64,000 nucleotides of DNA from an uncultured archaeon (lineage in GTDB: Archaea; Thermoproteota; Nitrososphaeria; Nitrososphaerales; Gagatemarchaeaceae), in NCBI GenBank assembly GCA_963817525.1, contig CAWFOU010000007.1:960001-1024000 (forward strand), read 5' to 3'. The position numbers were made by a program, and so were the translations under genes. The stretch's first letter is position 1. The number at the start of each line of letters is the position of its first letter. Below, piece after piece: positions 24,140-41,108 of the stretch. The notes below the pieces were generated by a model that was given only the letters and a program-made list of their open reading frames with translations, was not told the origin of the DNA and made no database searches.

Positions 24140-24165
24140 TGTGGACCGGGGGGGACTCGGACCCC
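24140..24165. repeat. att core, copy of tRNA-Ala 3' end
   Basis: 26 bp identical to 41107-41132. Confidence 0.93.
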
Positions 24166-24288
24166 GGGGAGTCTGGACCCCAATCTTTTCCTGCGTATTG
24201 GGTTCCATTGTATCCTAATCTGATATGAGCCGGGCTTAAAAATACCACGGATCCCCAGTTTCTTTCGGCCATTACGGCTTACCAAGTA

Positions 24289-24333
24289 CGAGCCCGACGG
24301 GACCCGCCCCTGAACAGGTTCTCAAAGTGGATT
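24289..24333. repeat. 45-bp direct repeat (copy at 26209-26253; partial copy at 27561-27581)
   Basis: 41/45 identity; the reverse complement contains a tRNA-like 3' end CCCGTCGGGCCCG. Confidence 0.85.
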
Positions 24334-24494
24334 GCCGCGGAGCAACCAACCAGGTTCGAATCGTCCAGGGGAGATTTTGAAATGACTAGTTCACATATCG
24401 AAATAACTAGTTCAACAATTCCTTGACAGCGGCCTCCGCGCCAGAATATCATACTAAACAGTTAATTATTAGGCAAAGCAACCCTAACCTCGCA

Positions 24495-25253
24495 ATGACA
24501 ACTCACATGGAACGGTACCAAGGTAAAAAAGTCGTGATCACTGGCGGCACCAGCGGCAGCGGGCTCGCCACGGCGAAGATGCTCCTCGATGGGGGTGCGC
24601 GTGTTCTGGTGACGGGGCGGTCGCACGCCGGCCTGGAATCGGCGCAGAAAGAGATTGGAAAGGACGCCATCGTGGTTCCCAGCGACGCGCGCTCGTTGAA
24701 GGACATCGACGCCCTCGCCTCTCGGGTGAAGGCCGAGTTCGGCACCTTCGACCTGCTCTTCGCCAACGCCGGATTTGCCCTCTTTGCCCCTCTCGAAAAC
24801 ACGACCGAGGCCATGTACGACGAGATGTTCGATCTGAACGCCAAAGGACCGTTTTTCGCGGTGCAGAAGCTCGCGCCGCTGATAAACCGGGGGGGCGCCG
24901 TCGTCCTCACGACCTCCATCGCAAACGTCAAGGGAAGTCCCAACCAAGCGACCTACGCAGCGTCCAAGGCCGCGCTGCGCTCATTTGCTCGCGTGCTCGC
25001 CGCTGAGCTTCTGCCTCGGGAGATTCGCGTCAATGCGGTAACGCCCGGTCCCATCGACACGCCGATCATCGGCAAAGTGTTTCCCGAGAAAGGCGTGGCC
25101 GCCCATGTCAGGGAGCAGGCGATCGCTACTAATCCGATGAAGCGCTTTGGGATGCCGGAGGAAATTGCGAAGGCCGTTCTCTTCCTCGCATTCGACGCGA
25201 CCTTCACCACCGGTTCCGAACTTCCGGTCGATGGCGGTGCGTCGCAACTCTGA
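24495..25253 (+). CDS. SDR-family oxidoreductase
   Basis: VITGGTSGSG, FANAG, YAASK, VNAVTPGPIDTP, VDGG. Confidence 0.95.
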   Translation: MTTHMERYQGKKVVITGGTSGSGLATAKMLLDGGARVLVTGRSHAGLESAQKEIGKDAIVVPSDARSLKDIDALASRVKAEFGTFDLLFANAGFALFAPLENTTEAMYDEMFDLNAKGPFFAVQKLAPLINRGGAVVLTTSIANVKGSPNQATYAASKAALRSFARVLAAELLPREIRVNAVTPGPIDTPIIGKVFPEKGVAAHVREQAIATNPMKRFGMPEEIAKAVLFLAFDATFTTGSELPVDGGASQL

Positions 25254-25525
25254 AAGCAGTACGCGAAATGCATCGACACTTGATCTGATGAGCCAAGTGC
25301 GTTGACGGCACCGGTGAGTCACCCTCAACGAACTCGGCAATCTTGTAGGCCTTCCGGCGTTTTGCGCCGACCGGTGACGAGTGCGATCGAATGTTCCATG
25401 GGCGCCTCCGTGGTAAACGGTGAAGGTCGAGTCCTGAGGCCCCGCGAGGCAGTGTCGGCTTGCTAATTACGAACTATTCGGTTTTTATATCGGTGCGACG
25501 GCCTTGTCCAGGAGATTTAAACTAA

Positions 25526-26158
25526 ATGTTGCAAAATGACGCCAGGCCGCGTGGACGGCCGCGCAGCTTCGACGAGAGGTTCGCGCTGGAAAAGGCGATC
25601 CAGGTGTTCTGGTCGAAGGGCTACGACGGAGTGACGATCGACGACCTCGTCGCAGGGATGGGCGTGGGACGGCCGAGCCTGTATTCCGTCTTCGGAGACA
25701 AGCGGACGTTGTTCTTGCGCGCCCTTAGGGCGTACGCAGAGACGAAAGGGGCTCTCGCTGCGAAGGCACTCCTCTCGCCGCGCACTCTTCGCGACTCGCT
25801 CGCCGCCTTCCTGAGGAACGCCGTAGAAACTGCGACCCAGGAGGGATCCGCTCGGGGATGTCTTCTCGAGTGCGTCGCGCCGCTTGTGAACGATGCTGAG
25901 GTCCGGCAGTTCCTACAGAACGCGGCCGCTCACGCCGTAGGACTAGTGGAAGGTCGTTTCCGGGATGCGATCAGCGCGGGCGAAATCCCGTCCGACTTTC
26001 CTGTGGCCATCCGCGCAAGCCAGGTCGTTGATTTTGCTCGTGGCCTTACCATGGGTGCGCTGATAGGCACGCCGCGCAAGACGCTTCTCAGGGATGCCGA
26101 GGAAGCGGCCGACTTGGTGCTCCTGCCGCGGCGTGTAAATGCGGCGCCAGAACGTTGA
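25526..26158 (+). CDS. TetR/AcrR-family regulator
   Basis: RGRPRSFD..FWSKGYDGVTIDDL..SLYSVFGDK; GCLL. Confidence 0.95.
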   Translation: MLQNDARPRGRPRSFDERFALEKAIQVFWSKGYDGVTIDDLVAGMGVGRPSLYSVFGDKRTLFLRALRAYAETKGALAAKALLSPRTLRDSLAAFLRNAVETATQEGSARGCLLECVAPLVNDAEVRQFLQNAAAHAVGLVEGRFRDAISAGEIPSDFPVAIRASQVVDFARGLTMGALIGTPRKTLLRDAEEAADLVLLPRRVNAAPER

Positions 26159-26294
26159 TGACGGCTGGGTAGCCATCGCTCGCAAGGCGGCCGGCCCCGG
26201 AATGGTAGCGGGCCCGACGGGGCCCGCCCGTGAACAGGTTCTCGAAGTGGATTCCGGGAAAGTTAGCTCGCGGATCTGCGCGGCGCCAGTTCGG

Positions 26295-26951
26295 TCAGGC
26301 CGGTGATTCCTTCAGGACTTGCGCCAGTATGCGTCGCTCCGCCTTTATGCGATGCACCACCAGCGTGGAGCTTCGCATCCCGAGTCTCCTCCCGAGCTCG
26401 TTAGAGCTTATCCTCTTTGGAAGGTCATAGTATCCAAGGTTGAAGGCAGCGATTAGGACCTTTCTTTGCTTCTCCGTAAGATTGGCTAGAGGCGAAGTCA
26501 GGGAGAATCTCGCATCTCCAAGAGAGATCACCTTGTATCGCATGCCTGTCTCGTCGACGATCTTCCGAAAGCGCTTAACCTCATTCACATTCCCTAGGAA
26601 TGTCGCTCTAATCCGTCCATCTCTAATCTCAAACGGGAGGGTAAGGTATCCGCCCGTCACGAACATCTTGGGCGTCGGACCTTCTGAGCCGTACTTTCTT
26701 CGCAGGAAGTAGATGTGCGCTCCGCCTTTCTCTTCCTCCAAGTGTTGGGCGACGGTGGAGTCGTCTAAGAGTACATCCTCAAGCTTGGTTGCGCCTCCTT
26801 TGAATTTCACCCGGCATATCATCGCGACCTCGTCCGGTTCCTCCCTTAGGAAGCTGACGACCTCAAATAGCTCGATTTTCCTTAGCGACGACTCTGCACC
26901 CATGAGTCTACCCAGTTCTTCCGTGGTTGACTCCAGCACGAGCCTGCGCAT
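26295..26951 (-). CDS. Bacterio-opsin-activator-like (HTH-10) regulator
   Basis: LTEKQRKVLIAAFNLGYYDLPKRIS..KAERRI. Confidence 0.9.
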   Translation of the reverse strand: MRRLVLESTTEELGRLMGAESSLRKIELFEVVSFLREEPDEVAMICRVKFKGGATKLEDVLLDDSTVAQHLEEEKGGAHIYFLRRKYGSEGPTPKMFVTGGYLTLPFEIRDGRIRATFLGNVNEVKRFRKIVDETGMRYKVISLGDARFSLTSPLANLTEKQRKVLIAAFNLGYYDLPKRISSNELGRRLGMRSSTLVVHRIKAERRILAQVLKESPA

Positions 26952-27046
26952 GCAAAGACAACGACAGTGCGGGAAATATCAATCTTTCTAGCACGCTAGC
27001 ATATTAGCTACAACACTCTTATGAGATTCTCTAATATTTCGAAACA

Positions 27047-27439
27047 ATGACTGCGGAAACCAAACTCGTGATTCGCCCCCAGGGAATCCTGATCGCCTGT
27101 GTGCTGATGATTGTGTTTGGCATCGCGGAGGTTGCCACAGGCTTCACCGGTCATTTTCTCGGCGGCATTTCGGTTGCCACGTCGACGGAATACACAATCG
27201 CAGCGGCCGCGACCGGTTCCTGCTACAGCCTGGCTGGTCTTTTCATTCTAACGATGAGGAAGCGGGGCGCGGCGCTCGGCATCGCCTTTCTCTGTGCTGA
27301 ACTCCTCGGACGGGTCTACCTTGTCTCGACCGGTCTCTACCCGTTCAGCGGAACTGATGAGAGTGCGGTTATCGCGGGAAGCATAATCGCTGTACTCTTC
27401 GCACTCTACATTGGACTGAGGTGGAATAGATTCAGGTGA
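27047..27439 (+). CDS. Small 4-TM membrane protein
   Basis: Hydrophobic ORF divergent from the HTH-10 regulator. Confidence 0.75.
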   Translation: MTAETKLVIRPQGILIACVLMIVFGIAEVATGFTGHFLGGISVATSTEYTIAAAATGSCYSLAGLFILTMRKRGAALGIAFLCAELLGRVYLVSTGLYPFSGTDESAVIAGSIIAVLFALYIGLRWNRFR

Positions 27440-27695
27440 CTCAAATCGCAAAACTCGAGACGGTCCGACGTCCTGGAATGGCCTCTGCGTCTCAGGTCTG
27501 CTCCGCAATAGCATAATTCGGCCTCTTTCTGACAAAACAAGCTCAGAACAGGCCTTTTATTAGCGGGCCCGACGGGGCTCGTCACCTATAGGTGGCGGAC
27601 CCGAGGAGGACCTGGAGGCTTTTATGCGGTCTAGGATATCCAGGAGTCCTCGCCGAGTGGAGTAGCATGTGGGGGGAGATGAAGGAGGGGAAGCT

Positions 27696-28406
27696 TCACG
27701 TGCGGGAGCTCAAGCACTTCCACGACAGACTAGTAGCCTCCGCGCGCTGAGCCTCAAGGTATTCCCTGATGTATTCGCACGCCTGCTCGGGGATGAAGGT
27801 GAAGTAGCTCCTCTTGCTCTTGCTGATCGGCCTGCGGATGACGAGCTTGGCGGGCACCTTCGTGAACGCAGCGCTCTTTTGCGCAATATGGAACTCCAGC
27901 TCCGGAAAGTCGCCAAGCTTCAGGCCGTCGGCACCGTAGATGGTGCCCATCACTTCGGGGCGTATCCCCGAGAACGCGATTAGGGAGCATGCCGCCTTCG
28001 CTCGCAGGTCGGCGTGGTTGAGGATCCTGTTCAGCTCGTCCGGAGAAGGCGTCTTCTCGTTCTCGTACTTGTTCGGGGTGTATGGGATGCGGATCTTCTT
28101 GGTGACGACGATGTCGTTGAACGAGAACCACGACTTCAGCGCCTTGATGTACGACTCGATGAGGGTGCCCGCGTTCCCCCTGGCTTCGAGCATCGACACC
28201 ATGTCGATGAGGAACGAGGTAACCTCCTTGGGGTTCTTCCTGGCCAGGTCGGAGGGGGTGGTGGCGTACTCCCTGCAGATGTTCCCTATTCGCCTGAAGC
28301 AGACGGAGGCATACGTCTGAGAACCTCTCTTGGCGTTCTCGTACCAGCGGAGAAAGGTCTCGTCCTCCTCCAGAAGGTGGACGTAGGGCGATCTCTTAGG
28401 TAGCAC
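27696..28406 (-). pseudogene. C-terminally truncated tyrosine integrase
   Basis: Homologous to 39620-41041 (SPY.H.L.EDE.F.RW, NKYENE, SGIRPEV, DGLKL.DFP); ends before the RxxF/GH/Y catalytic motifs. Confidence 0.88.
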
Positions 28407-28638
28407 AGCATGCTGGTGCGGTGCGGCATATAACGTCTGGGTCCAGACCCGGGGAAGTGTGGACCGGGGGGGACTCGGCCGATTATTCGTCTGAGTCTTC
28501 GGCATCCGATGCCCAAAGACCCATCGCTCGCAATTATATCTAGAGCCTGAGATAAAAAGGTCACGGTCGCGGATTCTGCTTGATTAAGATACATGGATTC
28601 CTAAATATTGATAAGATGCGACCAGAACATTCGTCTCG

Positions 28639-29187
28639 TTGTCTCAACGAAGGGAACGAATTAGGGCGGGCCTTAACGTTCCTCACGTTGAGCAAGGCGA
28701 AGAGGAATATTACTGCGTCCCTGCGTGTATCAGCATGGTAGTTCGGTTCCACGTTGAGACTATGGGGGCGGAAATACCGAACCCTCCTGTTTCCGAGCTA
28801 GCGAGCGCTATGGGAACGGACGCATCAGGCACTTCTCTTAACGACGTTGTGAGGGCCAACCGGACACTTCGGGGCCGTTCTCACTTCTTGGAACTTAAGC
28901 CAAGAAGGAACTGCGAGTTTCGGGACATCAAAAAGCAAGTTCAGGAAGAAGGAAGGCCCGTTATAGCATGGATTAAGCCGCACAGGGAAGACCGAATCGG
29001 GCACTCAGTAGTCGTCAAGGAAGTTGACCCTTCGGGGTTAAAACTGACTATTGATGACCCTGCTAGAGGCGAATGGGTGTTAGAAGTGACCGAGTTCCTT
29101 CGGGTTTGGGGAAACTCCCACTACGTTTTAATCGAGGCGACGGTGGACAACAAGCCTCCGCAATCGGATTTACGTGAATTTGAATGA
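28639..29187 (+). CDS. C39-like cysteine peptidase
   Basis: VPHVEQ..YCVPACISMV, GRPVI, GHSVVV, IDDP (Q-C-H-D). Confidence 0.85.
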   Translation: MSQRRERIRAGLNVPHVEQGEEEYYCVPACISMVVRFHVETMGAEIPNPPVSELASAMGTDASGTSLNDVVRANRTLRGRSHFLELKPRRNCEFRDIKKQVQEEGRPVIAWIKPHREDRIGHSVVVKEVDPSGLKLTIDDPARGEWVLEVTEFLRVWGNSHYVLIEATVDNKPPQSDLREFE

Positions 29188-30110
29188 TGAAAGACGCGAC
29201 AGAAGCCATCGAGCGCTACGTGGACAACACGTATGGCGACCTGATTACCACAGGGAAGCCCTTACATTACAAGAGCCGAGGCTGGGTCGCCGAACTCAAG
29301 TCGGATTATCCACGCACGATTAGGGACGATAAAGACCCGCACTCGACCTTCGTTAAGTTCATCACGCTGAGAGAGCTGGGGGAAGTCACGTTGTCGGATA
29401 ACAACGAGATAGAGGGAACTCCCAGAAAGGAACTCGTTGAAAGGCTCACATCTTCCCTAACTCAGTGGAGGCAACTAGTCGAGGAAATCATACTCAGCAC
29501 TTCGTCGAATAGGCTTGCTAAAATTGGGCGACTCAAGGACACCCTGAATCCTATAGTTCTTGTCGTTGACCACTTCTCACGTGAAGGGGTTGACTTGCTC
29601 TCCTACGAAGAGATTAGGAAAGACCCTCGCTCAAAGAAGATGCTCCGTTGGCTCGAATTCTTAGAGCAAATCAAGCTAGTAGCGAAGAAAGACGACGGAT
29701 TCACCTATGGGAACAAGTTCAGCGAGCTGGAGAAGCAACTCGGCCCGGGAGAGAACTTGACCGACACGGTAATCTCCTATATCATGCAGAACTACTACGC
29801 CACGATGCGCCAAGCCCTAGAGATATGGCGCTTCGACCCGTATCTTCACATGGAGACCTGCTATTTCGGCCCGTCACTCCAAGCCGGGAGGCTTCTATAC
29901 AGAAAGGAAGCGTCCTTGCTCGCACTCTATCACAAGTGGTATCAGAAGCAATCTCCGAACTACAGGATAAGGCCCATACTTGACCAACTTCAAGAAGTGG
30001 GTTTGCTAGAGAAAGAAGGCGAGTATTGGGTTGGCTCGAAAGACATGTGGAAGACTCTCGCCCCGCTGAAAGAGAAAGTTCCGCAAGAGATAGCTCCGCT
30101 GAAAGCGTGA
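29184..30110 (+). CDS. Hypothetical protein, possible winged-helix repeats
   Basis: ATGA overlap with the peptidase; LEFLEQIKLV and LDQLQEVGLLEKEGEYW wHTH-like segments. Confidence 0.75.
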   Translation: MMKDATEAIERYVDNTYGDLITTGKPLHYKSRGWVAELKSDYPRTIRDDKDPHSTFVKFITLRELGEVTLSDNNEIEGTPRKELVERLTSSLTQWRQLVEEIILSTSSNRLAKIGRLKDTLNPIVLVVDHFSREGVDLLSYEEIRKDPRSKKMLRWLEFLEQIKLVAKKDDGFTYGNKFSELEKQLGPGENLTDTVISYIMQNYYATMRQALEIWRFDPYLHMETCYFGPSLQAGRLLYRKEASLLALYHKWYQKQSPNYRIRPILDQLQEVGLLEKEGEYWVGSKDMWKTLAPLKEKVPQEIAPLKA

Positions 30111-30514
30111 TTAACCAAATTAGGCAGTGGGAAAGGTTGAGACTCAAAGCAACCCAAATCGTCATAACTATCGTAGTCATTGCGCTAGTGGGCGGCGGCG
30201 CAATTCTTCTTTACGATGAGACGTCGGGGCCGTCTGTGAGTTCCAGCGTGTCCACAAATGCTAGCTTGGTAAGCGAGCTGGATTGCTTTGGAAGCAATGC
30301 ATATACTACTGTCGCGCTCCGTGTAAACTCAACCTCAACCTCCACCTCTATCACGACTTATTCGGGACCTGGCGAGATGGAATTTGATTATCGAACTAAT
30401 ACGACTGTGGCCGCGCCTGTCGGTACCGTAGTAACTACAACCACTACTTTCGCTTCCAGCTCGGGCAACGTGGTTTCAGAGTGGGAAGCCGTAACCTGCA
30501 CTTACGTGAAATGA
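30107..30514 (+). CDS. Membrane-anchored Thr/Ser-rich protein
   Basis: GTGA overlap with the previous stop; N-terminal TM. Confidence 0.65.
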   Translation: MINQIRQWERLRLKATQIVITIVVIALVGGGAILLYDETSGPSVSSSVSTNASLVSELDCFGSNAYTTVALRVNSTSTSTSITTYSGPGEMEFDYRTNTTVAAPVGTVVTTTTTFASSSGNVVSEWEAVTCTYVK

Positions 30515-30526
30515 CAAGATATCGAC

Positions 30527-30853
30527 TCATCTAGGCTTCTTGACGAGCCTCTTCTTGACCCGGTTCTCCCACTCATGATAGTCAATCAGGCCGCGCTCTT
30601 CTAGCAGTTCGGCGAGAGAGGTTATCATGTTGTCCTGCATGTCAAGCTCGCCCGCGAGGTTATCCGTTGAGATCGACCCGGCCTTCAACGGTCGGCCTTC
30701 TGCGGCCCCTAGATACCCCTGCATGGTGAGATACGCGATGACGATGTTCCTGATTACTTCGGAGTCTCCGTCGCCAATCTTTCCCTTCATCTCAGCGTCG
30801 ATGATTGCCCATAGGCCTTCTGGAAGAGTGACTAGCGCCCTTCTCCGAGGCAT
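30527..30853 (-). CDS. Ribbon-helix-helix/CopG-like regulator
   Basis: MPRRRALVTLPEGLW..DSEVIRNIVIAYL; TGATG coupling to the transposase stop. Confidence 0.75.
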   Translation of the reverse strand: MPRRRALVTLPEGLWAIIDAEMKGKIGDGDSEVIRNIVIAYLTMQGYLGAAEGRPLKAGSISTDNLAGELDMQDNMITSLAELLEERGLIDYHEWENRVKKRLVKKPR

Positions 30854-31731
30854 CAGGCCCTTACCTCCACTTGGACCGCCCCGGCCTTCTCCACGACCTC
30901 TTGAATCGTCTTCTCCGCCGTCGCGTTCTGAATCAGTTGCTTCCAGCCTTTCATCTCTATCCCTGCCGCCTGCGCGGGGGTCTTCCCGATACTTGAGTGC
31001 GTCCGACAGAAGTTGTAGTTCACGACGTAGCCTTCGAGAAGGTTCTTGGGATTCTTCAGGCCCCGCATCGGCTTCACTCTGTCCTTGAGCGTCCCATGAA
31101 CTCGCTCCACTATGTTGTTGGTCTCCCTCGCTCGAATCCCGACCCTTCTCACCCACTCGACCTTGTTCCCCTTGTATCGGGTGTAGAAGACTTTCTTCAT
31201 CGCCTCGTCGTATGCGAAGGAGCCGTCGGTGTAGAAGGCCGTCGGCCTCTGCTTCTCAAGGGCCTGTGTGAAGACCTTGATTGCATCCGCGCTCGTCCGC
31301 GAGTTGCTAACCATGCTTGCGACTATGAACCGAGTGTCTTCGTCGATGGTCTCCCAGAACCACTTCTCTTCTCCGCCGACCTTTATCGCCGTCTCGTCGT
31401 GGTGATACTTGCCTCCCAACTTGGGCGCGAGGGTCTTCACGAACTCGCTGACCATCTCGCCATACTTAGAGACCCAATACCAAACCGTAGAGGCGGCAAC
31501 GGTCTCGCCGAAAATGTCTCCGAGCTGTCTCTGAACCTTGCGAGTGGAGAGACCGTCATAGTAGAGGTTCAGCGCCGTCACGATGACATGCTCGTTCACC
31601 CTCATTCGAGCGAAGGAGACATGGTTATCGTAGAAGTGGTGAGAGCAGTTCTTGCACTGGAACCTCTGGACCCCCATCTTGACCCCGTGTTTCACGACTT
31701 TTTCCGACCCGCAGAACTTGCATGCGTTCAT
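30853..31731 (-). CDS. IS6-family DDE transposase
   Basis: CKFC..CKNC Zn finger, HHDET, IDEDTRF, YTDG, NNIVERVHGTLK, YNFCRTH. Confidence 0.93.
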   Translation of the reverse strand: MNACKFCGSEKVVKHGVKMGVQRFQCKNCSHHFYDNHVSFARMRVNEHVIVTALNLYYDGLSTRKVQRQLGDIFGETVAASTVWYWVSKYGEMVSEFVKTLAPKLGGKYHHDETAIKVGGEEKWFWETIDEDTRFIVASMVSNSRTSADAIKVFTQALEKQRPTAFYTDGSFAYDEAMKKVFYTRYKGNKVEWVRRVGIRARETNNIVERVHGTLKDRVKPMRGLKNPKNLLEGYVVNYNFCRTHSSIGKTPAQAAGIEMKGWKQLIQNATAEKTIQEVVEKAGAVQVEVRA

Positions 31732-32256
31732 TTGCCAACAGGGTGTATATTGGCATTAGACCTATTTATATCCATTGTATAGCCAGTTGATATCCATGTA
31801 TCTTAATCAAGCAGAATCTCATAGTTCGAGCTGCCGTGGTCGAGACGACGCCCTGGAAGAAGGGCCGGAAGGACTGACGAACCGCTAACCAACACGCATC
31901 TTAGCGAAACCAACTACATCCTTACCACGCCGCAATCCAACTGAAGAGCCGTGAAAGTACTAATTCTTCATTCGCCCTAGCCGTGGTAACGGTTGACCCA
32001 GTCATTCACAGGGGTCGTCCGGCCTTGGGTCGGTCCGCCTTCTAAGCAAGTATCCCGTTGGCGCGAGGCCACCACTCGCTTGCGAATCCAGCCGATTGCA
32101 CTTGTATTACATTGTAAGCCATTGCTATATTAGCACGGGCATCACAAGAACTTGCGATGGGCTTTCAGAAGTTGCTTGCTGCGTTCCCTCTAATCCTCCT
32201 GTCGATTGGGATGACGAGCATTCCGATTGCAGCCGGCTTGACGACAGGATTTCGAT

Positions 32257-33341: not shown

Positions 33342-33926
33342 ATGGCCAACGGCAGAAAGGCGCTCGCGCTTGTCGCGATTGTGATTCTGGTTGTAGGCGC
33401 CCTCAGCGTTTACTCCATTGTGGCGACGACCAAGTCGGTCGGACAAGGAAAGACAATCTCGTCGCTTGAATCGACGCTGAGTTCGATGGATTCACATCCG
33501 TTCATTTCTGTGAGCACTACAACGATCACCCTTTCTTCGACGGACACTCGACTTCCTTCTTTCCCATGGAACAGCAGCGCCGCGCAATATATGGCCGGTG
33601 CGAACTTTTGCAATGCCGGTTATGAGGGAGCTTGTTTCTCTAGCGCGTTCAGTAATGCTTACGTGTTCACTTGCCTCAACCAAGCCGCGACTCCACAGGG
33701 GTGCACGGTACGAATGAACGCGACCAACTCGATATCCTTCGTCGTCGTCACGGTCTGGTATCCTTACTACAACTCGACTGCGGGTGCGCCCGCTTGGGCA
33801 GATTGTGCTTGGAATAATCCCGGAGGAGGGGGTCCCAGCCAGTTCTATGCTGCGTTTGCATCCTACTGCTTCAAATTAGGTGGAAACGCCTTCATACTTA
33901 CCTCTCCACCTCTTCCCACAGCTTAG
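33342..33926 (+). CDS. Membrane-anchored Cys-rich protein
   Basis: N-terminal TM; NAYVFTC..QGC..YPYYNST..WADC..YC; homolog of 50848-51405. Confidence 0.75.
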   Translation: MANGRKALALVAIVILVVGALSVYSIVATTKSVGQGKTISSLESTLSSMDSHPFISVSTTTITLSSTDTRLPSFPWNSSAAQYMAGANFCNAGYEGACFSSAFSNAYVFTCLNQAATPQGCTVRMNATNSISFVVVTVWYPYYNSTAGAPAWADCAWNNPGGGGPSQFYAAFASYCFKLGGNAFILTSPPLPTA

Positions 33927-34123
33927 GGACCTTGGTGCTGTTCTCCATCACCTTGAATTCATGGAAAGCCCTTTGTATTGCAAATATAACGAGTCCAAGC
34001 CGACAACTCTAGGCTGAGACTCGTGAAGATATTGCGGAAGGGCAATCGTGGCTCTTGGACATGCGTCCCCCCTCGTATAGGCGCTGAAGTATCCAAAAGT
34101 GATTTTGCCTTGAGAAGGACTTG

Positions 34124-34672
34124 CTATTGGCCTTGCTTGGAAAAGCGAATCTTCAGTATGTTGCCCTTGACCTCTATCTGGAGTTTCCCTCTCGACAGAA
34201 CTTCGTAGGCCCCCGAGATATAGCTCTTCAGAAAATAGGACCACTTCTCACCGTACCCGTGGCGCAAGGTCATTCGTTCTGAGTTCTCGGACACGTTTCC
34301 TTCGACCGTGAACCACCCACCTACCTCCGCAAGTATGCTCACCAAGAACTCAACGAACGTCATCTGGCAGCCTGCGCTCTCCAAAAGTTCGAGCACCAGA
34401 GAATAGTTCTTCTTGCCCAGCGCGAACCCGTCCACTTCCAAGGAGTCGAGGTTCGCCGTGCTCATTATCGAAGCAAAGGTCTCACAGCCGAGCGCGATCC
34501 TGCCCAAGGCAGGAATCAGTGGATCGACCTTCAACGCTCTGGTCAGGACTTGCGCCACGTACATGTTTTCGCTGACATGAAGCCGTCGTGCAGTGCGTGC
34601 AAGCTCGAGTGTTAGACGCTCGTCAAGCCGGAACGCCTTGACTTTGGTATGGCTCGCCGTAGCCATTTCCAT
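34124..34672 (-). CDS. Hypothetical protein (RHH-like N-terminus, V4R-like C-terminus)
   Basis: KVKAFRLDERL..VSENMYVAQVL; LRHGYGEKWSYFL. Confidence 0.7.
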   Translation of the reverse strand: MEMATASHTKVKAFRLDERLTLELARTARRLHVSENMYVAQVLTRALKVDPLIPALGRIALGCETFASIMSTANLDSLEVDGFALGKKNYSLVLELLESAGCQMTFVEFLVSILAEVGGWFTVEGNVSENSERMTLRHGYGEKWSYFLKSYISGAYEVLSRGKLQIEVKGNILKIRFSKQGQ

Positions 34673-35345
34673 GAAAGAAACAGAGGAATCTCAATGCAGG
34701 TTCTATTTAGACTTGCCGTATTCACCGCAAAAATACAGCTTGGTGAACATTATTGCGTGAATCGCAACCGCGTTCCAATGTCACATTTCCTACCAGCAGG
34801 ATACCCAAGGTCGTCTTCACGAGCGTGCGCTCTATTATCTCGTCGGGTGATTTGGGCGATTCGAGAGGGGCATAGGTCGCAGGAAGATTTAAGGTTGACT
34901 GGATGAGTCAGGAAACTTGCGCAATTATCGTCTGGAAAGGTAACGACCCTAAACCCAACGAGGGCGTAAGAAGAGGAGACAACCTCATTGATTTTGTCAT
35001 AGGTTAACAATGCTGAAGAATAAAAATTGCGGTAAGCGTTTACCGTTATGAAGTTCCACGGTCAATATTCAGCTTCTGACGCTCATTTTAGCGACATTTC
35101 CATCACGAACTTCGGAACGGTAAACGTGTACAAATTGCGGAGTTCTTTAGAGTTCCCACGCTAGAGGCTCGCGGTTCCCGTGCAACAGCGAACGTCTGGC
35201 AAGTACTCTCCTAGAATCTTCCTCTGTCCTCCTGCTCAGCTTTTCTGCGTCGGCGGCTCCGGCTTACGCGAGAATGAATTGCGTCCCTTCTGGGCGCCTC
35301 GAAGGTATCTATCCTTTTGACAGTGTGTGCGCTCCCTGCCAAAAC

Positions 35346-35480
35346 CTAGGAGGCGAGCTTCCTGCTCCTCATGGCAAGATAGCCAGTTGCGATGGTGAAG
35401 ATCACGGCGACTACCGCTACTCCATACAGTAGGCCCGAGCTCACTCCTGTGGAGGATGTGGACGTGATTGTAGTTGCCCT
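35346..35480 (-). pseudogene. Orphan C-terminal membrane-anchor fragment
   Basis: ATTITSTSSTGVSSGLLYGVAVVAVIFTIATGYLAMRSRKLAS* with no upstream body. Confidence 0.6.
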
Positions 35481-36417
35481 TCCAGGTCAGCCTTCACCTG
35501 GAGAATGGTTTCCTGGAGAGGCTAATGGCAAGGCGGGCAGCCTCTGCCATCAGTATTGACCTGGAAATCGGTCCAAAAAACACACAAGGGGGATGGTATT
35601 AACTAACCCGCAACTCTCTACCGTCCTCTGTCTCCGGCTTCGCGTCATTGGCGCTATCGCAAGCCGATCAAGCTATGGTCGATTTGCTCATACCCGCATC
35701 AGAGGCATGTGATGCCCACCTGAGCGAACCTCTTACGACGCGTTCGAGTGCCTTGTGCCACCATCCACAACCATCCGCGGCTGGGACTAAACTGAGACCA
35801 GACTCCTTACCACGACACGCCAGCTCATTTCTGCCGGGCAGGGACGGATGTGCTTCGACTCAGATGAGCTTGTCCTCAGCTTGGCGAGCGCCCGCTCCGT
35901 CCGATTGTTGGCTTCGTGGCTGACGACCAGGACCATCGAGGTACTCGAGGGCGATAGCTACTTCCAAGTTGAAGAAACCGCGGACGCCAGGGCAGTGCCC
36001 CCTAAGGCTCATTGTCAGGGCGTCGAGGTCGACCGGAGACTTGGCCATCCTCTTCGAAAACCGATAATGCAACCCGGGTCCAACGAATCTCTTGCCCGGC
36101 TCAGCGTGCAAGGGCCTTTCGGTCCACAGTCGTTCCTCAGAATGCAGCAATCGCGCAGCTCTGCCGCTTGGGCATAGCCGAAGCCACTGCCTCTGGGACG
36201 GCACACTCCTACTGGAGTGGGCCTCTGTTTTTGTTTTGGGGGGGTTACTTTTTGCTAAGAATAGCAGTGGAGAAGTAGGCGGGTCTATTTAACGCGGCAA
36301 AATCGGGACCATTCCTATCGCGTTTTCCATAACCTCGGACACAGCCGAACCTAGCATACCTTGAGTTGAGAGCCAGTCAAGGCCTAACGACGACGCAAAA
36401 GCGCCGTTATCGAAGGC

Positions 36418-36780
36418 AAAGCGGACATCTTCAGGGGTCTGGACGGCGCCAAGGCGGACATTCGGGTCGAAAGTGGACATCGGGAGGCGGTTCTGACGGT
36501 GAATGTGGACATCAGGGGTGCCAAAAACGGGTCGCGGTTGCAACATCCATGTCCACCTTCGCGCGCCCAGGGGCGGCAAATGTCCACCTTCGGGCGGTCG
36601 GCGAGGGCGGAGTGGTCGTCGATGTCAACCTTGAGATCCAAAGGCTTGAGATCCAAGGGCCAGGCTTGACATTTTGGGCTCCAAGGTTGACATTTGTGGT
36701 TCGAAGTGAAGGACAGCTTCACGTGTCCACCTTGCCCCGGTAATGGGCGTGCAATGTCCACCTTCATGGATGTGGACATG
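36418..36780. repeat. 12 copies of a 12-bp motif AAGGTGGACATT in both orientations
   Basis: Copies at 36418, 36451, 36470, 36502, 36548, 36579, 36621, 36662, 36683, 36722, 36753, 36769. Confidence 0.85.
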
Positions 36781-36817
36781 GGTCGCTTCGGGGCAGGAGC
36801 CAACCGAGGGGGCTGCT

Positions 36818-37337
36818 AATGCTCGACCCTCGAGCATTATGCATTTGGAGTAATGCGCAACCCTTGCGCACTAGCGCCTTCATGGCAATACGCAACCCTT
36901 GCGCATTAGGCAACCCCGTCTTCTCGGGAAACGCATGATTTGGCACGTGAGGAATGTCTGTGGGACCTGCGAGGCTTCTCGAACGCACCCGTTCACGACC
37001 AATGCACAACCCTTGTGCATTAGCTCGCTTGGGCAAAGGCACAACCCTTGTGCATTGACCAGTCCGAGAGGTTTCACCCCGGCCTCCGCAAAGCTGTACG
37101 CCAAGACCCGTTCCACTATGGAGCGTAACTTTTGAAGATCAAATCGGGCGGGTCCGGCAGTCGCATCATATCATGGGGCTAAGGGTGCTAGAGCTCCCCG
37201 TTAACCAGGAGGTGCAGGATTTGGTGGATACAGGGGAAAATCGATGACTTGTACGAGACACTCACAATTCTGCTCACGGCTGATGCCCAACCCTTGGGCA
37301 TTGCGGCGCATGGGATAATGCCCAAGCCTTGGGTATT
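36818..37337. repeat. 21-bp palindromes AATGnnCAA-CCC-TTGnnCATT at 34-35-bp period
   Basis: Copies at 36818, 36852, 36887, 37001, 37036, 37282, 37317 (plus 38787 and 38822). Confidence 0.9.
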
Positions 37338-37734
37338 GGCTAGCCCTATACGGCCACCGCCCACGTTCCGCCGATGGTAGGGCCAATCCTAAAGCATCCT
37401 CTTGAAGGGCGACGCCCCGCGCAGCTTTACCTGCCGATCGAGAAGCAGCGTGCCAGCGTCGACGTCGAACCGGCCTATCCGCCAAAGGCCAGTGCTCTTG
37501 ATGAGGCGTGCGCGAGCTGAGCGAGAGGTTCGCCTCGCGAGAACCCTATTTTCAGTTCAAGCACTAAAGGCGAAAAGGGTGCGACTGCCGATCTCTCGAT
37601 GAAAGCGTACGATGTCGACCTTCCCGGTGTTCTCTGAAGAAGACAGAAACTGTCGCGAGAGCGAAAGGTGGCGTAGGAACCGAACCCCGAAGAACGATTA
37701 GCTTAAGCCCGATTCGTTCCAGGTTACCGCGCAA

Positions 37735-38193
37735 TTGTCCGGGGATCTCAAATCAAGAGTAAAGTTGCCTGAAGGGTTCAGATTTCTGCGCGAGGGCGAC
37801 ATAGAACGACCATTTCGGACCGGCGACAAAACGATGGACAAGTATGCGCTCAGAGACTACCACGCTTGGAGCCTCCTGCCCAACGAGCTCGTGATCCTGT
37901 ATGAGGTCGCAGGTGATGTTGCGGGCATAATAGAGATGACGGTCGACGAAGACCACATAATGATCGAGATGGTGGCGCGGAACACCCTAGTTGCGGCTTC
38001 TGGCGTTGGGACAAGACTCATGAGCCTCGCTGAAAATGTCTCGAGGCAGCTGGGCAGGAGCGAAATCCGATTGGAATCCCTTGACGGCGTGGTTGCGTGG
38101 TATGACGGGCCTCTGGGGTACGAAGAGTACACCGAGAGATTCTACGATCCTGAGTTCGGCTGGCTGACCCCGAAGAGGAAGTTCATGCGGTGA
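37735..38193 (+). CDS. GNAT-family acetyltransferase
   Basis: IEMVAR..GVGTRLMSLAE..IRLESL..VAWY..LGY. Confidence 0.8.
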   Translation: MSGDLKSRVKLPEGFRFLREGDIERPFRTGDKTMDKYALRDYHAWSLLPNELVILYEVAGDVAGIIEMTVDEDHIMIEMVARNTLVAASGVGTRLMSLAENVSRQLGRSEIRLESLDGVVAWYDGPLGYEEYTERFYDPEFGWLTPKRKFMR

Positions 38194-38410
38194 CCTTGGC
38201 CTTCTGCCTCATCTTGCCTATGACCTTTCGCGACACAGCGTAGACGCCGGTATCTGGGTCGGACCTCACGATGTCCAGATAGTGCTGGACGACCTTGTGC
38301 TCGCGCAGGTAGTTGTCGATCACGCGGGACTTGTTGACTCCCTGGGCTATCGCCATGCTCTCCAGAGCGTCATCCAGCTCGTCAGTCAGCGAGATTGAGA
38401 TTTTCCTCAT
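38183..38410 (-). CDS. Ribbon-helix-helix protein
   Basis: MRKISISLTDELDDALESMA..VNKSRVIDNYLR; ATG at 38410. Confidence 0.85.
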   Translation of the reverse strand: MRKISISLTDELDDALESMAIAQGVNKSRVIDNYLREHKVVQHYLDIVRSDPDTGVYAVSRKVIGKMRQKAKVTA

Positions 38411-38786
38411 GCTACCACGGTCATACTCTGGTAGCAGAGCGCTATATAATCTTGCCGGGAGTCTCTTCCGTTGATTCCCGAATGGACCTTGGCTGAGGCC
38501 AGAGATTCCTTTGCCAAAGAGCCGAAAGAAGAGCAGCCGAGGGAGCCAAGGGGCAAACCATCGGAGAGAGTGTTCTCGAAGGTACTCACAGCAGAGAAAC
38601 ATCGACAACTTTGGGAAGACTGCTTTCAGCGCCCAACGAGCTGTGTCCAGATTGACTCCGCGAGGGCTGCGCCAAGGAAGGGTCTGGCTGAGTACCCCTG
38701 TTTACGAAAGCGAAGATGGGCCTTCCTAGCTTCTAGTCGCAATCTTTCTCGCCTCGTTAGACGCCCAGAAAGCAACTCCTCAGACT

Positions 38787-38842
38787 AGTGTGCAACCCTT
38801 GCATATTAGCGCCTCTAGGGCAATGTGCAACGCTTGCACATT
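38787..38842. repeat. Further pair of 21-bp palindromes
   Basis: agtgtgcaa-ccc-ttgcatatt and aatgtgcaa-cgc-ttgcacatt, 35 bp apart. Confidence 0.85.
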
Positions 38843-39152
38843 AAGCTCGCATGGGCTCATGAGCAACCATGAGCTAATGAGGGTGATTCGCAAGCAGCCA
38901 AACGTCTCGCGAGGAAGCCAGAGGCCGAGCCAAGGACTCGGGAGGGAAAATCGGTCCAAAAAAAATAATGAGAGGAGATAAGAGAATATCCGCAACGAGT
39001 CCGTGCGACCATTTCGACTCCCCCAAAATGAGCGGCCTCGACAGCCGCCGCTAGTAACGGTCGGTCTCCGATTCGTCGGTTTCGGTCAGTTCAGAGAGAA
39101 AATAAATTTAGACAGCATCAAACACCACTGGAATATTTAACGGCCCACTGTC

Positions 39153-39283
39153 AGCTTGCCAAGCCTCCCACTAGGTTGCCACTCAAAGTCCTCCATTTGG
39201 CAACCTCATGACTCATTTTGGCAACCTGTCTCCTCGATTTGGCAACGTTGAATGGCAAGGTTGCCAAAACTAAATGGCAACCT
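39153..39283. repeat. Iteron-like TTTGGCAACCT repeats
   Basis: Direct copies at 39196, 39217, 39238 (21-bp period) and 39273; inverted copies at 39153, 39173, 39258. Confidence 0.85.
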
Positions 39284-39399
39284 GGGTTATCCTCCCGAAA
39301 TGGAGGAGACAGCCCAGAGCTGTCCCACTACCTGTCGAACTTTAGGAGTTAGAGCCTCTTGTTAAAAGCTCCAGACCACAGGGAAATCAGGAAATCGAA

Positions 39400-39618
39400 A
39401 TGGACTCCCGTAACGATGGCTCTGTCGACCTGCGACCATTCAAGGAGAAGCTAAAGAAAAGACTGCCATCCGAGAGTTTCGTCCTGATTGACCTCCTCAA
39501 CGAGCCGGATTCGATGCCGTCCACCCGGGCCGAGGTCCTGATCCCCCACTACCTCCAGAGACTGGAGAGAGAGCTTGAGAAGTACGAATCGAAAGGGCCT
39601 CTCGTCTTGAAGGCCTGA
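39400..39618 (+). CDS. Small hypothetical protein (possible directionality factor)
   Basis: 72-aa ATG ORF convergent with and abutting the integrase stop. Confidence 0.7.
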   Translation: MDSRNDGSVDLRPFKEKLKKRLPSESFVLIDLLNEPDSMPSTRAEVLIPHYLQRLERELEKYESKGPLVLKA

Positions 39619-39619
39619 C

Positions 39620-41041
39620 CTAGGCCGTCCTCAGCCCTATCACAACCTTCTCATCGGGCAGGTCCCGCTTATAGTCCCACCCCTGCTCTATCCACTGCTC
39701 CAGCTCGCCGATGGGAACGACCTTCTGCGTCCCCTGCTTGAGCCCCAGCATCTGTTTGGACTTTTCGTGGATAAGCTCCTGCAGCTTCTCCAAGGTGAGT
39801 TGCGTGACGTCGCCCAACGCTTGGATCTCCGCTTCGGTGTACCCGAACATCTTCAAAGCCTCGACCCTCGCGGTGTTCACAACCTCGTCCCTGCTGATCG
39901 TGGGCTGGGCGAGCGTCTCGAGGTGCTTCGCGGCGGCCTGGGAGTAGGCTTGCCTCATCCTCTCCGCCACCTCCTTGGGCAGCCCCTTGTTCACGCTGTA
40001 CACCGACTCGATGTTCCCCACGTGCCCCATCCAGAACTCCCTCCACTCCCTCAGGATCAGCCTCTCGTACTCCGCGTTCATCATGCAGACCTCGAAGTAC
40101 CTCCTGAGGACGTACGGCCTCCAGGTGAAACCGGCGGCCACGATTGCCTGTTTGAGGCCGACGCAGACCTTGTTCGTGCTGATGTAGCTAGACTTTTGGT
40201 TCTTGATGGCCCCTATGAGCGGAGATTCGGGCGTCAGCTTCTCTCCCGGTAGGCGCACCTCCTCTAGGACTCCCACCCTCTCCCTCCCGTGGGACCAGGT
40301 CTTCCTGGTGTACACCTTCGTCCGCATCCTCCACTCGAGGTAGTTCTTGAGGTACTGACAGGCCTCCGGGGGAAGGAACACAAAGTAGGTGTGCCCCGCC
40401 TTGCTTATCGCCCTCCTGCACACCACCTGGGCGGGCGTGTTGAGGAAGGAGACCGTCCCTCCCACCGCGTTCCCGGCCCCGTCGAGTAGGTTCTCGATCT
40501 TGAGGTCGGGGAAGTCGGCCAGCTTGAGCCCGTCGTCCCCCACCATGTTTCCCTGCACCTCGGGCCTGAACCCGCAGAAGGCGATGAGGGAGATCGAGAC
40601 CTTGGCCCTGATGTCGGCCACGTCGAGTATCCTCCTGAGCTCCTGGCGGGTGGGAGGCACCTCGTTCTCGTACTTGTTGTAGTCCGAGGCGCCGTAGATC
40701 CTGATGCTCTTGGGCGTCTCCATGTCGTTCCAGATCATCCAGCTCTTGACCGCCTTGACGTAGCCCTCGATGCCGGAGCCCTTGATCCCCTTCTTCTCAA
40801 AGTGGGTGATGAGGTCGTGGAGGAAGAACTTGGCCTGCTTCGTGTCCATGGTGACCAGCTCCTTCGGCGTGACCTTCAGCTCCTCGCAGGCGTAGGAGGC
40901 CTTGCGGAAGTAGACGGAAGCGGTCGTTATCGAACCGCGCTCCAGCGCCTCCACCCACCTCCTGAAATTCTCGTCCTCCCCCAGATAGTGGAAGTAGGGC
41001 GACTTCGCTAGACTCAGACTCCTCATCTTTCCATTTCTCAC
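39620..41041 (-). CDS. Tyrosine recombinase/integrase (intact)
   Basis: GFRPEV (R), PYVLRRYF, FWMGH, VYS (Y); adjacent to the att site and tRNA. Confidence 0.93.
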   Translation of the reverse strand: MRNGKMRSLSLAKSPYFHYLGEDENFRRWVEALERGSITTASVYFRKASYACEELKVTPKELVTMDTKQAKFFLHDLITHFEKKGIKGSGIEGYVKAVKSWMIWNDMETPKSIRIYGASDYNKYENEVPPTRQELRRILDVADIRAKVSISLIAFCGFRPEVQGNMVGDDGLKLADFPDLKIENLLDGAGNAVGGTVSFLNTPAQVVCRRAISKAGHTYFVFLPPEACQYLKNYLEWRMRTKVYTRKTWSHGRERVGVLEEVRLPGEKLTPESPLIGAIKNQKSSYISTNKVCVGLKQAIVAAGFTWRPYVLRRYFEVCMMNAEYERLILREWREFWMGHVGNIESVYSVNKGLPKEVAERMRQAYSQAAAKHLETLAQPTISRDEVVNTARVEALKMFGYTEAEIQALGDVTQLTLEKLQELIHEKSKQMLGLKQGTQKVVPIGELEQWIEQGWDYKRDLPDEKVVIGLRTA

Positions 41042-41108
41042 CTGTTTGTTGCTTTTGGTGAGCGACAGGCGCTTTAAGGCGGGGCGGGGACTCAGACGAA
41101 TAATGGTG

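Follow-up and report, generated by a model that had tools for sequence, protein, structure and literature searches.

Two mobile elements are arrayed in tandem at a single tRNA gene in a soil archaeon. When the ends of either element are joined in silico, the core of the resulting attP is flanked by inverted repeats. We suggest, with a probability of roughly 0.55, that integrases of this family use a dyad-symmetric attP of ~60 bp with paired protein-binding half-sites in duplex DNA, namely two element-specific 12-bp sequences lying 19-30 bp to each side of the dyad. The preliminary description of this DNA had offered either a hairpin or cruciform or element-specific symmetric sites; the second option fits best, and the conserved geometry extends beyond the two elements to the integrase family across four genome families of the same order.

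Tandem elements at a probably intron-bearing tRNA gene

The window (the whole stretch of DNA that was analysed, 64,000 nt) contains three copies of a 21-nt core, TGTGGACCGGGGGGGACTCGG, which start at 24140, 28458 and 41107. No further copy was found in the window with up to 3 mismatches allowed, 100 shuffles being likewise without a match, nor elsewhere in the 2.8-Mb genome with up to 2 mismatches. The core copies delimit both elements, which carry related tyrosine integrases, one of them truncated. Copy A (24140..24160, plus strand, an exact 21-mer match) is the distal att site of the array, with the chromosomal tRNA trailer on its left and element 2 on its right; copy B (28458..28478, plus strand, also a 21-mer match) forms the junction of element 2 with element 1; and copy C (41107..41127, plus strand), which has 26 nt in common with copy A, covers the intact tRNA gene's 3' part, T-loop through 3' end. 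Within copy C, we infer that the dyad falls between 41117 and 41118. A decayed third att end is represented by three remnants at 15860..16101 on the minus strand: an integrase N-terminal fragment (15860-16009), the arm-like sequence ctattattcgtctctccc (16065-16082) and a core remnant of 12 nt (16090-16101). A circular junction of either element was not present in the public contigs examined.

The target gene (41109..41219, minus strand), of which the core is the 3' end, is most likely a tRNA-Ala(GGC) gene with G3:U70 that two short segments, 41172-41192 and 41145-41160, interrupt. Unspliced, it gave no call from ARAGORN or Rfam; once both segments are excised in silico, ARAGORN recognises it as a tRNA-Ala(ggc) of 75 nt. 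Among 10464 trial removals, 818 gave calls, with Ala(ggc) the commonest (166) and Pro(tgg) next (113). The orthologous tRNA gene is occupied in the genomes G132, G306 and G165.

Element 2 (24161..28457, 4.3 kb, between copies A and B) is a decayed integrated element in which a Pfam scan identified short-chain dehydrogenase, TetR and HTH_10 genes besides the truncated integrase. The latter (27696..28397, minus strand) shares 46% identity with the element 1 integrase over residues 13-236 of the latter and retains just the ~240 N-terminal family residues, the catalytic C-terminal part being absent; it gives weak matches to XerA and the phrog_1 integrase. Element 1 (28479..41106, 12.6 kb, between copies B and C) carries, by the same kind of scan, C39 peptidase-like, GNAT and RHH genes, an inserted DDE transposase gene and a full-length integrase of 473 aa (39620..41041, minus strand).

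By its predicted structure (pLDDT 85.9), this integrase is a genuine tyrosine recombinase. The model has ~16 poorly ordered residues followed by a helical core-binding domain (residues 17-104) and a catalytic domain, and the protein ends in a conserved C-terminal extension of ~125 aa. Foldseek searches with the model gave archaeal XerA 4a8e (E 7.6e-8), IntI 2a3v, XerH and Cre as top hits and matched 5hxy and lambda Int as well, and a profile built from 36 homologues matches XerA 4a8e at E 7.5e-6. In the 36 integrase sequences R159, K214, R313 and Y348 are invariant and H340 is present in at least 90%, and we read all five as putative catalytic residues. The element 1 protein falls below the Pfam threshold for PF00589, a domain recorded for some homologues; 220 homologues were collected, some of them annotated as site-specific integrase. 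Between the arm and the integrase start, a TTAAAG motif (41072..41077, minus strand), read from the sequence, is a candidate TATA-like box of the integrase gene, and homologues likewise have an A/T-rich box of this kind after the arm.

Inverted repeats around the core of both attP

The four arm coordinates and sequences given in the preliminary description agree with the window sequence, and the inverted repeats that it reported around the core exist in both joined-end attP. In element 1, the arm distal to the integrase gene, attattcgtctgagtc (28482..28497, plus strand), is the perfect reverse complement (16/16 bp) of the arm adjoining it, gactcagacgaataat (41089..41104, plus strand). In element 2, the distal arm ccccggggagtctggaccc (24162..24180, plus strand) is the reverse complement, over 16 bp, of the adjoining arm gggtccagacccgggg (28439..28454, plus strand) plus 3 extra nt, and its in-register symmetric part is gtctggaccc. 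The arms are separated by 26 nt in element 1 and 25 nt in element 2. Scored by local alignment of 45-nt flanks (+2/-3/-5/-2), the repeats reach 32 and 23, respectively, against a 99th percentile of 18 for shuffled flanks, while attB as reconstructed and the two integrated junctions give only 8-14. The claim that the arm sequences are unrelated does not hold for the outer 10-12 nt: GTCTG stands at 21-25 nt from the tRNA-defined dyad, on both sides, in elements 1 and 2, and the family has a T-arm-like consensus.

The symmetry is specific to attP, absent in attB and both integrated junctions. Integration splits the arm pair, and the half-sites thereby become ends resembling terminal inverted repeats, one beside each core copy. 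Such inverted ends just inside a direct repeat are also what terminal inverted repeats and the target-site duplication of a transposon- or casposon-like element would look like, and casposons likewise stack in tandem at tRNA 3' ends (PMC6563490, in the part of that survey used here). We regard this origin as extremely improbable, since the 'duplication' is the tRNA gene's 3' end and identical in both elements, the inverted repeat of each element stands off from the direct repeat instead of abutting it, and each element has a tyrosine recombinase reading inward from one end. A Pfam scan of 23 ORFs, 16 of which lie within the two elements, found no Cas1, PolB or end-associated transposase, and the sole DDE gene belongs to an internal IS; the casposon and transposon class was rejected on these grounds.

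Recurrence in homologous elements

Of the 75 integrase loci surveyed, 7 belong to the same genome and 68 to further genomes of the order. Element ends were set from direct repeats alone (at least 13 nt, one copy 15-150 nt upstream of the integrase), inverted repeats playing no part in the criterion, and 22 sites were obtained in this way. The attP score reached at least 18 in 12/22 of these a-priori sites and in 0/22 each for attB, the integrase-side junction and the far junction, counts that overstate independence as the loci are mutually related. None of 5000 permutations reached the observed mean attP score. Ten of the 22 sites scored below 18; four of them (G207C44, G264C93, G125C11 and own_C7_1045) keep the arm edges 60-62 bp apart, and the remainder may reflect wrong direct repeats, decay or armless sites. 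In this reconstruction of attP in homologues, which the preliminary description had proposed together with a test of covariation, inverted-repeat arms recur in the 12 sites that reach the score of 18, and between element 1 and its 79%-identical relative G132C26 3/16 arm positions differ, two of them compensated and one not.

A non-functional relic or a chance arrangement, such as degenerate T-arm copies left by past recombination and inverted by accident, would account for the T-arm-like character of the arms, and the T-arm sequence is itself nearly palindromic. It is nevertheless highly improbable: the element 1 repeat is perfect, the contrast between attP and every control junction contradicts it, as do the sharp limits of the symmetry described below, and the symmetry survives across integrases that are just 33-45% identical.

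Geometry of the symmetric site

In 12 of the 15 positives the outer arm edges lie 58-62 bp apart; the other three measure 67, 69 and 71. Relative to the T-stem/acceptor boundary (nominal nt 64/65), the dyad is displaced ~1 nt in the 5' direction and falls within the attB identity block, which always reaches at least 3 nt on the 5' side of the dyad. With an expected offset from this boundary of -1, or +1 for a reversed tRNA, the dyad is within 0.5 nt of expectation in 10 of the 13 elements with an automatically located T-loop, and the offset holds over different tRNAs and both orientations. When the dyad was set from the tRNA alone (n=13, weak cases kept in), complementarity was 0.73 at 19-30 nt from the dyad compared with 0.26, 0.22 and 0.31 in three controls, and it was at background both at 1-12 nt (0.31) and at 31-40 nt (0.32). 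The inner limit of arm pairing ranges from 20 to 44 nt among sites. On the integrase side, 35 non-identical loci give the arm consensus G-t-t-C-G-A-A-A-C-C at +20 to +29, a degenerate T-arm-like sequence resembling the T-arm GTTCRAATCC at -13 to -4.

These features bear on whether attP acts as a folded single strand or cruciform, comparable to integron attC or CTX sites, with the recombinase acting on the fold. With DNA parameters, attP segments of ~66 nt fold arm-to-arm in 14/15 positives (dG -6 to -23 kcal/mol, z -1.5 to -6), pairing is kept while arm sequences differ between elements, two of the changes between element 1 and G132C26 are compensated, and the structural neighbours of the integrase include IntI, but also XerA, Cre and lambda Int. 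However, conservation concerns the outer 12 bp, which keep a fixed distance from a tRNA coordinate, not the length of the stem or the size of the loop, and a family-level consensus of the arm sequence exists. The attB identity block, in which exchange must take place, would fall in the loop rather than the stem, and with loops of 20-44 nt a cruciform in duplex DNA would need that much melting. The 3-nt indel of element 2 leaves the outer blocks in register on duplex DNA, several left arms of the ATCCCTTCCGGCCCA group bear uncompensated mismatches, and the same 23 ORFs contain no recognised rolling-circle or relaxase gene or other sign of a single-stranded replication or transfer stage. The hairpin or attC-like attP put forward in the preliminary description is accordingly disfavoured, and we consider a folded site unlikely. 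Its specific form, in which the excised attP is a hairpin with the tRNA-identical core in the loop and recombines with the duplex tRNA gene, is less likely again; if true, a hairpin attP with its crossover in the loop would be a mode unlike that of attC or CTX.

Proposed binding of the symmetric attP as duplex DNA

For the duplex site that we favour, strand exchange would take place over a few bp centred on the dyad, and the half-sites would be bound by a two-fold-symmetric protein assembly. At 19-30 bp from the dyad the half-sites are beyond the reach of the two cleaving protomers in known tyrosine-recombinase synapses, and extra protomers or another protein must therefore be postulated. The binder would most likely be extra protomers of the integrase itself, or else an element-encoded accessory protein. 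In an exploratory module test on 31 loci (500 permutations), similarity between arms follows the integrase's central module (residues 131-349; beta 0.091, reached in 0/500 permutations), and similarity between tRNA sites follows its N-terminal core-binding module (beta 0.058, 0/500); the covariation with the central module should be interpreted with caution, as it may reflect merely the longest and least noisy proxy of relatedness. The C-terminal extension, the first candidate for the arm reader, shows no covariation with the arms (beta -0.012, reached in 409/500 permutations) and no recognisable DNA-binding fold (best Z 5.3, no Foldseek match at E <= 0.001).

Such an assembly could form only on the excised circle, where both half-sites stand together. 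It would distinguish attP from attB, attL and attR and could set the direction of the reaction, and where one tRNA core serves several elements it could pair each of them with its own integrase. The integrase-side arm would in addition stand directly upstream of a TATA-like box, and the same binding could thereby make integrase expression depend on whether the element is excised or integrated. A minor possibility is that regulation is the sole function, a dimeric regulator on the intact repeat sensing excision and controlling the integrase promoter, with no role in recombination. The integrase-side arm ends 0-12 nt upstream of the TATA-like box in many loci, the half-sites are parted by integration, and the RHH protein of element 1 is of the CopG type. 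An operator, however, has no need for a dyad within ~1 nt of the same tRNA coordinate over various tRNAs in both orientations, and in the examples read no TATA-like box comes after the distal arm.

A conserved, symmetric attP of 60 bp, present in the excised form alone, provides a testable answer to how attP is told from attB despite little shared sequence, and to how elements stack at one tRNA gene without mis-excision. It also supplies a rule for mapping element ends in Nitrososphaerales, namely to seek the mirror image of a 12-mer 19-30 nt past tRNA position 65, which is useful because direct repeats alone are too short in these genomes.

Comparison with known systems

We found no description of this symmetric layout in the archaeal literature searched. 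In the part of PMC8371274 drawn on here, archaeal integrases are described as simple, needing no arm sites or helpers, and those characterised need no directionality factor. The thaumarchaeal elements of Krupovic et al. (2019) resemble ours in their use of tRNA 3' ends including those of intron-bearing genes, their short att repeats (median 17 bp), tandem arrays and XerC/XerD-like integrases; in the sections of that study used here, att sites are noted mainly for their extreme shortness, and inverted repeats appear just for casposon ends or as a search method, not around attP (PMC6563490).

The arm sites of lambda Int-type integrases likewise lie beyond the crossover region, as accessory sites that attP has and attB lacks; their orientation is opposite on either side, integration splits them, and the arm-type sites of heterobivalent integrases are thought to give directionality (PMC8371274, in the portion used here). 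Unlike in lambda, each side here has a single 12-bp site, at only 19-30 bp from the dyad, in exact two-fold symmetry. Membership of the heterobivalent class was rejected: the model is without an N-terminal arm-binding domain and, past its disordered residues, starts directly at the helical core-binding domain. A simple site of the Xer/dif type was also rejected, the arm spacers being 20-44 nt and symmetry at 1-12 nt being absent (0.31 vs 0.26 in attB).

SSV-type archaeal integrases have attP inside the integrase reading frame, so that the gene splits on integration. This class was rejected, as the element 1 frame through attP meets a stop in the distal arm; conservation between elements 1 and 2 starts ~60 nt downstream of the core. 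The attC of integrons and the attP of CTX phage are used as folded single strands, with the recombinase sites and crossover in the paired stem, and attC-like sites carry conserved extrahelical bases. They resemble our sites in that a tyrosine recombinase uses an imperfect inverted repeat whose sequence varies under a conserved geometry. The attC-like class was rejected because here the attB identity block lies wholly between the arms, outside the paired stem.

Flp FRT and Tn3-type res sites are similar in having extra recombinase-binding copies beside the crossover within one short site. The extra element of FRT is single and in direct orientation, and the res subsites lie to one side, whereas the extra elements described here are symmetric about the crossover. 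Large serine integrases have a symmetric attP of ~50 bp, and the likeness lies in a compact dyad-symmetric attP whose half-sites extend beyond the reach of those in attB. Our enzyme belongs to the tyrosine recombinases, and the resemblance to the serine integrases is one of possible working, not of membership.

The tandem array and its target tRNA gene

The 21-nt core TGTGGACCGGGGGGGACTCGG occurs in the window as three exact copies, at 24140, 28458 and 41107. No further copy with up to 3 mismatches was detected there (0 matches in 100 shuffles), and beyond these three the 2.8-Mb genome holds none with up to 2 mismatches. The copies bound element 1 (28479-41106, 12.6 kb) and element 2 (24161-28457, 4.3 kb). 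A 473-residue integrase is encoded at the tRNA-proximal end of element 1 (39620-41041, minus strand) and reads inward; element 2 carries a homologue in the same position, with 46% identity over the first ~224 residues and without the catalytic C-terminal part. The interior of element 1 also contains a DDE transposase (30853-31731, minus strand; IS240/IS6-type Pfam match, E 5.7e-19), which is an insertion sequence within the element.

The rightmost core copy forms the 3′ end of a tRNA-like gene (41109-41219, minus strand), where it spans the T-loop, the 3′ strand of the T-stem and the 3′ acceptor strand. In its unspliced form this gene yielded no plausible tRNA with ARAGORN, just two implausible calls at low threshold, and no Rfam match at E <= 1, because two short intervening segments follow positions 26 and 37. 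When one segment was removed in silico the sole call was an implausible tRNA-Asn(att), which we rejected; removal of 21 nt after position 26 together with 16 nt after position 37 gave a 75-nt tRNA-Ala(GGC) with the G3:U70 pair. Among the trial two-segment removals Ala was the commonest call (166), followed by Pro(tgg) (113), and the target gene is a probable tRNA-Ala(GGC). Its ortholog in three other genomes is occupied by elements with 79%-identical integrases and has inserts at both of the same places, although shorter ones.

Inverted repeats in the joined element ends

Joining the ends of element 1 to reconstruct attP surrounds the core with a perfect 16-bp inverted repeat (arms at 41089-41104 and 28482-28497, spacer 26 nt), and the joined ends of element 2 form a 16-bp inverted repeat in which one arm carries three additional nucleotides (28439-28454 and 24162-24180, spacer 25 nt); on re-reading, all four arms proved to have been placed and spelled correctly in the preliminary description. 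Scored by local alignment of the attP flanks (+2/-3/-5/-2, 45-nt flanks), elements 1 and 2 reach 32 and 23 against a 99th percentile of 18 for shuffled flanks, while the reconstructed empty tRNA site (attB) and both integrated junctions score 8-14.

The wider survey took in 68 loci with homologous integrases in other genomes of the order, together with 7 from the window's own genome, all oriented on the integrase. Exact direct repeats were sought between a 220-nt stretch upstream of each integrase and the sequence downstream, and 22 loci were retained whose longest direct repeat was at least 13 nt with one copy 15-150 nt upstream of the integrase; inverted repeats were not used as a criterion. 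The single choice by hand assigned element 1 the nearer, 22-nt repeat copy instead of the 26-nt copy, because the latter pairs with the far end of element 2. At a threshold of 18, inverted-repeat arms were present in 12 of the 22 reconstructed attP sites, and in none of the 22 attB sites, integrase-side junctions or far junctions. When the left flank of one element was combined with the right flank of a different one, 6.3% of the 462 pairs scored 18 or more, a figure inflated by related elements, and the observed mean attP score of 18.5 was reached in 0 of 5000 permutations. The positives come from four genome families of the order, with integrases as distant as 33-45% identity to that of element 1. 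Four of the 10 attP sites below threshold still have their outer edges 60-62 bp apart; among the others are likely false repeats (own_C1_1153, G186C12, own_C7_84) or decayed elements. The distal ends of two close relatives (G306C24 and G165C24) were not found on their contigs, and an alternative scan that started from the mirror image of the arm mostly caught reverse tRNA genes. For this integrase family, the inverted-repeat symmetry of attP is a real and general feature with solid statistical backing.

Related sequences were seen at several other places. A decayed third att end lies at 15860-16101 (minus strand), 8 kb to the left of the tandem array, and consists of part of an integrase N terminus containing an in-frame stop, an arm closely similar to the element 1 arm, and 12 nt left over from the core; the stretch from 16.1 to 24.1 kb may be host DNA or an older element. 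The flank of the array also holds, at 24089-24097, nine nucleotides (gtctgagtc) that match the element 1 arm exactly. At the contig end of G132:C26 (L034), the distal core copy of a 34.7-kb element has another arm-like sequence after it, suggestive of one more tandem element cut by the contig end. A second hotspot in the same genome, outside the window (G000:C7, ~84-146 kb), surrounds a class-II tRNA at ~131.2 kb: on one side is a 14.9-kb element with an attP repeat score of 21 and edges 61 bp apart, and on the other, at 84 and 90 kb, are repeated tRNA-like segments of ~100 bp with integrase fragments. The copy at 84 kb has an orientation not produced by simple integration, suggesting that this hotspot has been rearranged.

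Free replicons carrying an undisrupted attP were sought by tblastn with the integrase, and neither the phage nor the plasmid collections gave a match. Excised circles and empty sites were sought over 23700-41500 in contigs of four public soil-metagenome runs, where depth was mostly 2-6, contigs broke at the core copies and no joint linked the element ends.

Two blocks at a fixed distance from a tRNA coordinate

Geometry was compared in the 12 positives, supplemented by three elements whose repeats are 12 nt long (G132C26, G014C7, own_C7_691). The outer edges of the arms are separated by 60 bp in eight of these 15 elements and by 58, 61, 62, 62, 67, 69 and 71 bp in the others; between the inner edges lie 20-40 nt, and up to 44 in one weak case. 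In the 13 elements with an automatically found T-loop, the symmetry centre, or dyad, falls at -1.0 from the boundary between T-stem and acceptor strand in seven; further fitting offsets are -0.5, -1.5 and +0.5, the +0.5 coming from an element with an oppositely oriented tRNA, and the three that do not fit (+12, +6, -5.5) all belong to low-scoring sites. The dyad is thereby held at the same tRNA coordinate across different tRNAs and both orientations, and the conserved layout noted in the preliminary description is borne out.

When the dyad was set from the tRNA alone and complementarity computed position by position in 13 elements, weak ones included, attP gave 0.31 at 1-12 nt from the dyad, 0.49 at 13-18 nt, 0.73 at 19-30 nt and 0.32 at 31-40 nt. 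Over the same intervals the values were 0.26, 0.19, 0.26 and 0.29 for attB, 0.22, 0.19, 0.22 and 0.22 for the integrase-side junction, and 0.30, 0.33, 0.31 and 0.25 for the far junction. Judging from the peak at 19-30 nt, what is conserved is therefore two 12-bp blocks lying a constant distance from a constant tRNA position; the symmetry reaches further inward in certain elements, including element 1. Chance inverted repeats are excluded by this profile together with the attP-versus-control scores and permutations, and such an origin is extremely improbable. We give practically no credence to a transposon-like element, for which the required enzymes were not found in a Pfam scan of 23 ORFs, 16 of them within the two elements.

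The identity block begins at least 3 nt 5′ of the dyad in every case and extends to the tRNA's 3′ end, an extent that would fit a short exchange region centered on the dyad. As the symmetry is specific to attP and its dyad lies at the same tRNA coordinate within the identity block, it probably plays a role linked to recombination.

Arm sequences and their probable recognition

The arms had been described as unrelated in sequence. They are indeed element-specific, yet GTCTG is common to elements 1 and 2, 21-25 nt out from the dyad in both directions. When 35 non-identical loci were aligned on the tRNA boundary, the integrase-side arm showed the consensus G-t-t-C-G-A-A-A-C-C at +20 to +29 (0.2-1.3 bits per position), resembling the T-arm motif GTTCRAATCC at -13 to -4 of the same alignment. 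Upstream of one integrase (G125:C11, L021) the target tRNA apparently has ~29 nt inserted in its T-arm, separating the T-loop from the 3′ strand of the T-stem. A TATA-like, A/T-rich box lies 0-12 nt past the integrase-side arm in many loci. A short palindrome (ggcatc-c-gatgcc, 28498-28520) lies just inside the distal arm of element 1, with a TATA-like aattatat ~25 nt past it, before the element's first gene (C39 peptidase-like). A purely regulatory operator would account for the position of the arm adjoining the integrase promoter, but is unlikely, as it leaves the fixed dyad unexplained.

Covariation between homologous attP sites, proposed as a check on pairing, was seen in part. Three of 16 arm positions differ between element 1 and its relative G132C26, with compensating changes in the opposite arm for two of them and none for the third; in the group targeting a tRNA ending ATCCCTTCCGGCCCA, the arm on the integrase side does not vary and the distal arm differs at 1-2 positions, uncompensated. 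Pairing of the arms as a hairpin in folded single-stranded attP is thermodynamically possible, since 14 of 15 positives fold arm-to-arm (dG -6 to -23 kcal/mol), but it would place the identity block in the loop. This, the fixed outer blocks, the family consensus and the uncompensated mismatches make the hairpin, one of two mechanisms offered at the outset, quite improbable. In element 2, the outer decamers are exactly in register on duplex DNA because the 3-nt indel falls in the inner part of the arm. We suggest that a fixed-size protein assembly probably recognizes the arms as duplex DNA, a reading favored by the fixed and sharply bounded outer position, the family consensus, the tolerance of uncompensated mismatches and the duplex register of element 2. 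The blocks at 19-30 bp may be held by extra integrase protomers or an accessory protein, assumed here because that distance exceeds the reach of two protomers cleaving near the dyad in known synapses.

As a candidate reader of the arms, the conserved C-terminal extension of ~125 residues found no support, having no recognizable fold and no covariation with them: no Pfam match rose above noise, Foldseek returned none at E <= 0.001, the best structural match had Z 5.3 over 48 residues, and its Atlas neighbors were unnamed or fragments of the same integrases. In an exploratory regression over 31 loci, the extension did not track arm similarity (beta -0.012, reached by 409 of 500 permutations). 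Arm similarity did track the central module of the integrase, residues 131-349 (beta 0.091), and similarity of the T-loop/acceptor region tracked the N-terminal core-binding module (beta 0.058), each with 0 of 500 permutations. These trends are compatible with an integrase that itself reads both the arms and the tRNA site, and should be taken as a lead only, given that they could also reflect module length and shared descent.

An integrase family with matches to XerA

The element 1 integrase has no Pfam match at E <= 0.01. A structure model built on 36 homologues (pLDDT 85.9) matches archaeal XerA (E 7.6e-8), IntI, XerH, Cre and lambda Int, and the family profile matches XerA 4a8e; as modeled, the protein is a tyrosine recombinase despite the missing Pfam match. 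Its closest database proteins are from Nitrososphaerota and Bathyarchaeia assemblies, some named site-specific integrase, and this origin displaced an initial suspicion, prompted by HTH_10 and DUF matches, of a haloarchaeal host. Matches at E <= 1e-30 occur in 108 of 401 sampled genomes of the order, a tally that includes the unpublished G108 and G271, which contributed to this count alone. The attP of element 1 lies ~60 nt upstream of the conserved integrase start, outside the gene, and the reading frame meets a stop in the distal arm; a self-splitting integrase of the SSV type is therefore ruled out.

The modules of these integrases look shuffled (G000:C1:1153448-1154743; G297, G351, G074, G065, G009, G201). 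Several paralogs share 60-70% identity with the element 1 integrase over residues 267-473 and only ~40% over 13-240, and across loci the identities of N- and C-terminal modules are weakly correlated (Spearman 0.17).

Comparison with known systems

In the portions of the literature consulted, among them parts of Krupovic et al. (2019; PMC6563490), Badel et al. (2021; PMC8371274) and work on SNJ2 and mv4, we found no account of an archaeal attP site, thaumarchaeal or other, with inverted repeats around it. The characterized archaeal integrases need no helper or directionality factor, according to the parts consulted of a review (Badel et al., 2021; PMC8371274). We regard the attP of the present family as a tyrosine-recombinase attP with accessory sites, a reading that is directly testable. 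The closest known arrangements we take to be the arm-type sites of bacteria, the asymmetry between attP and attB of the large serine integrases, and the additional binding elements in FRT and res sites.
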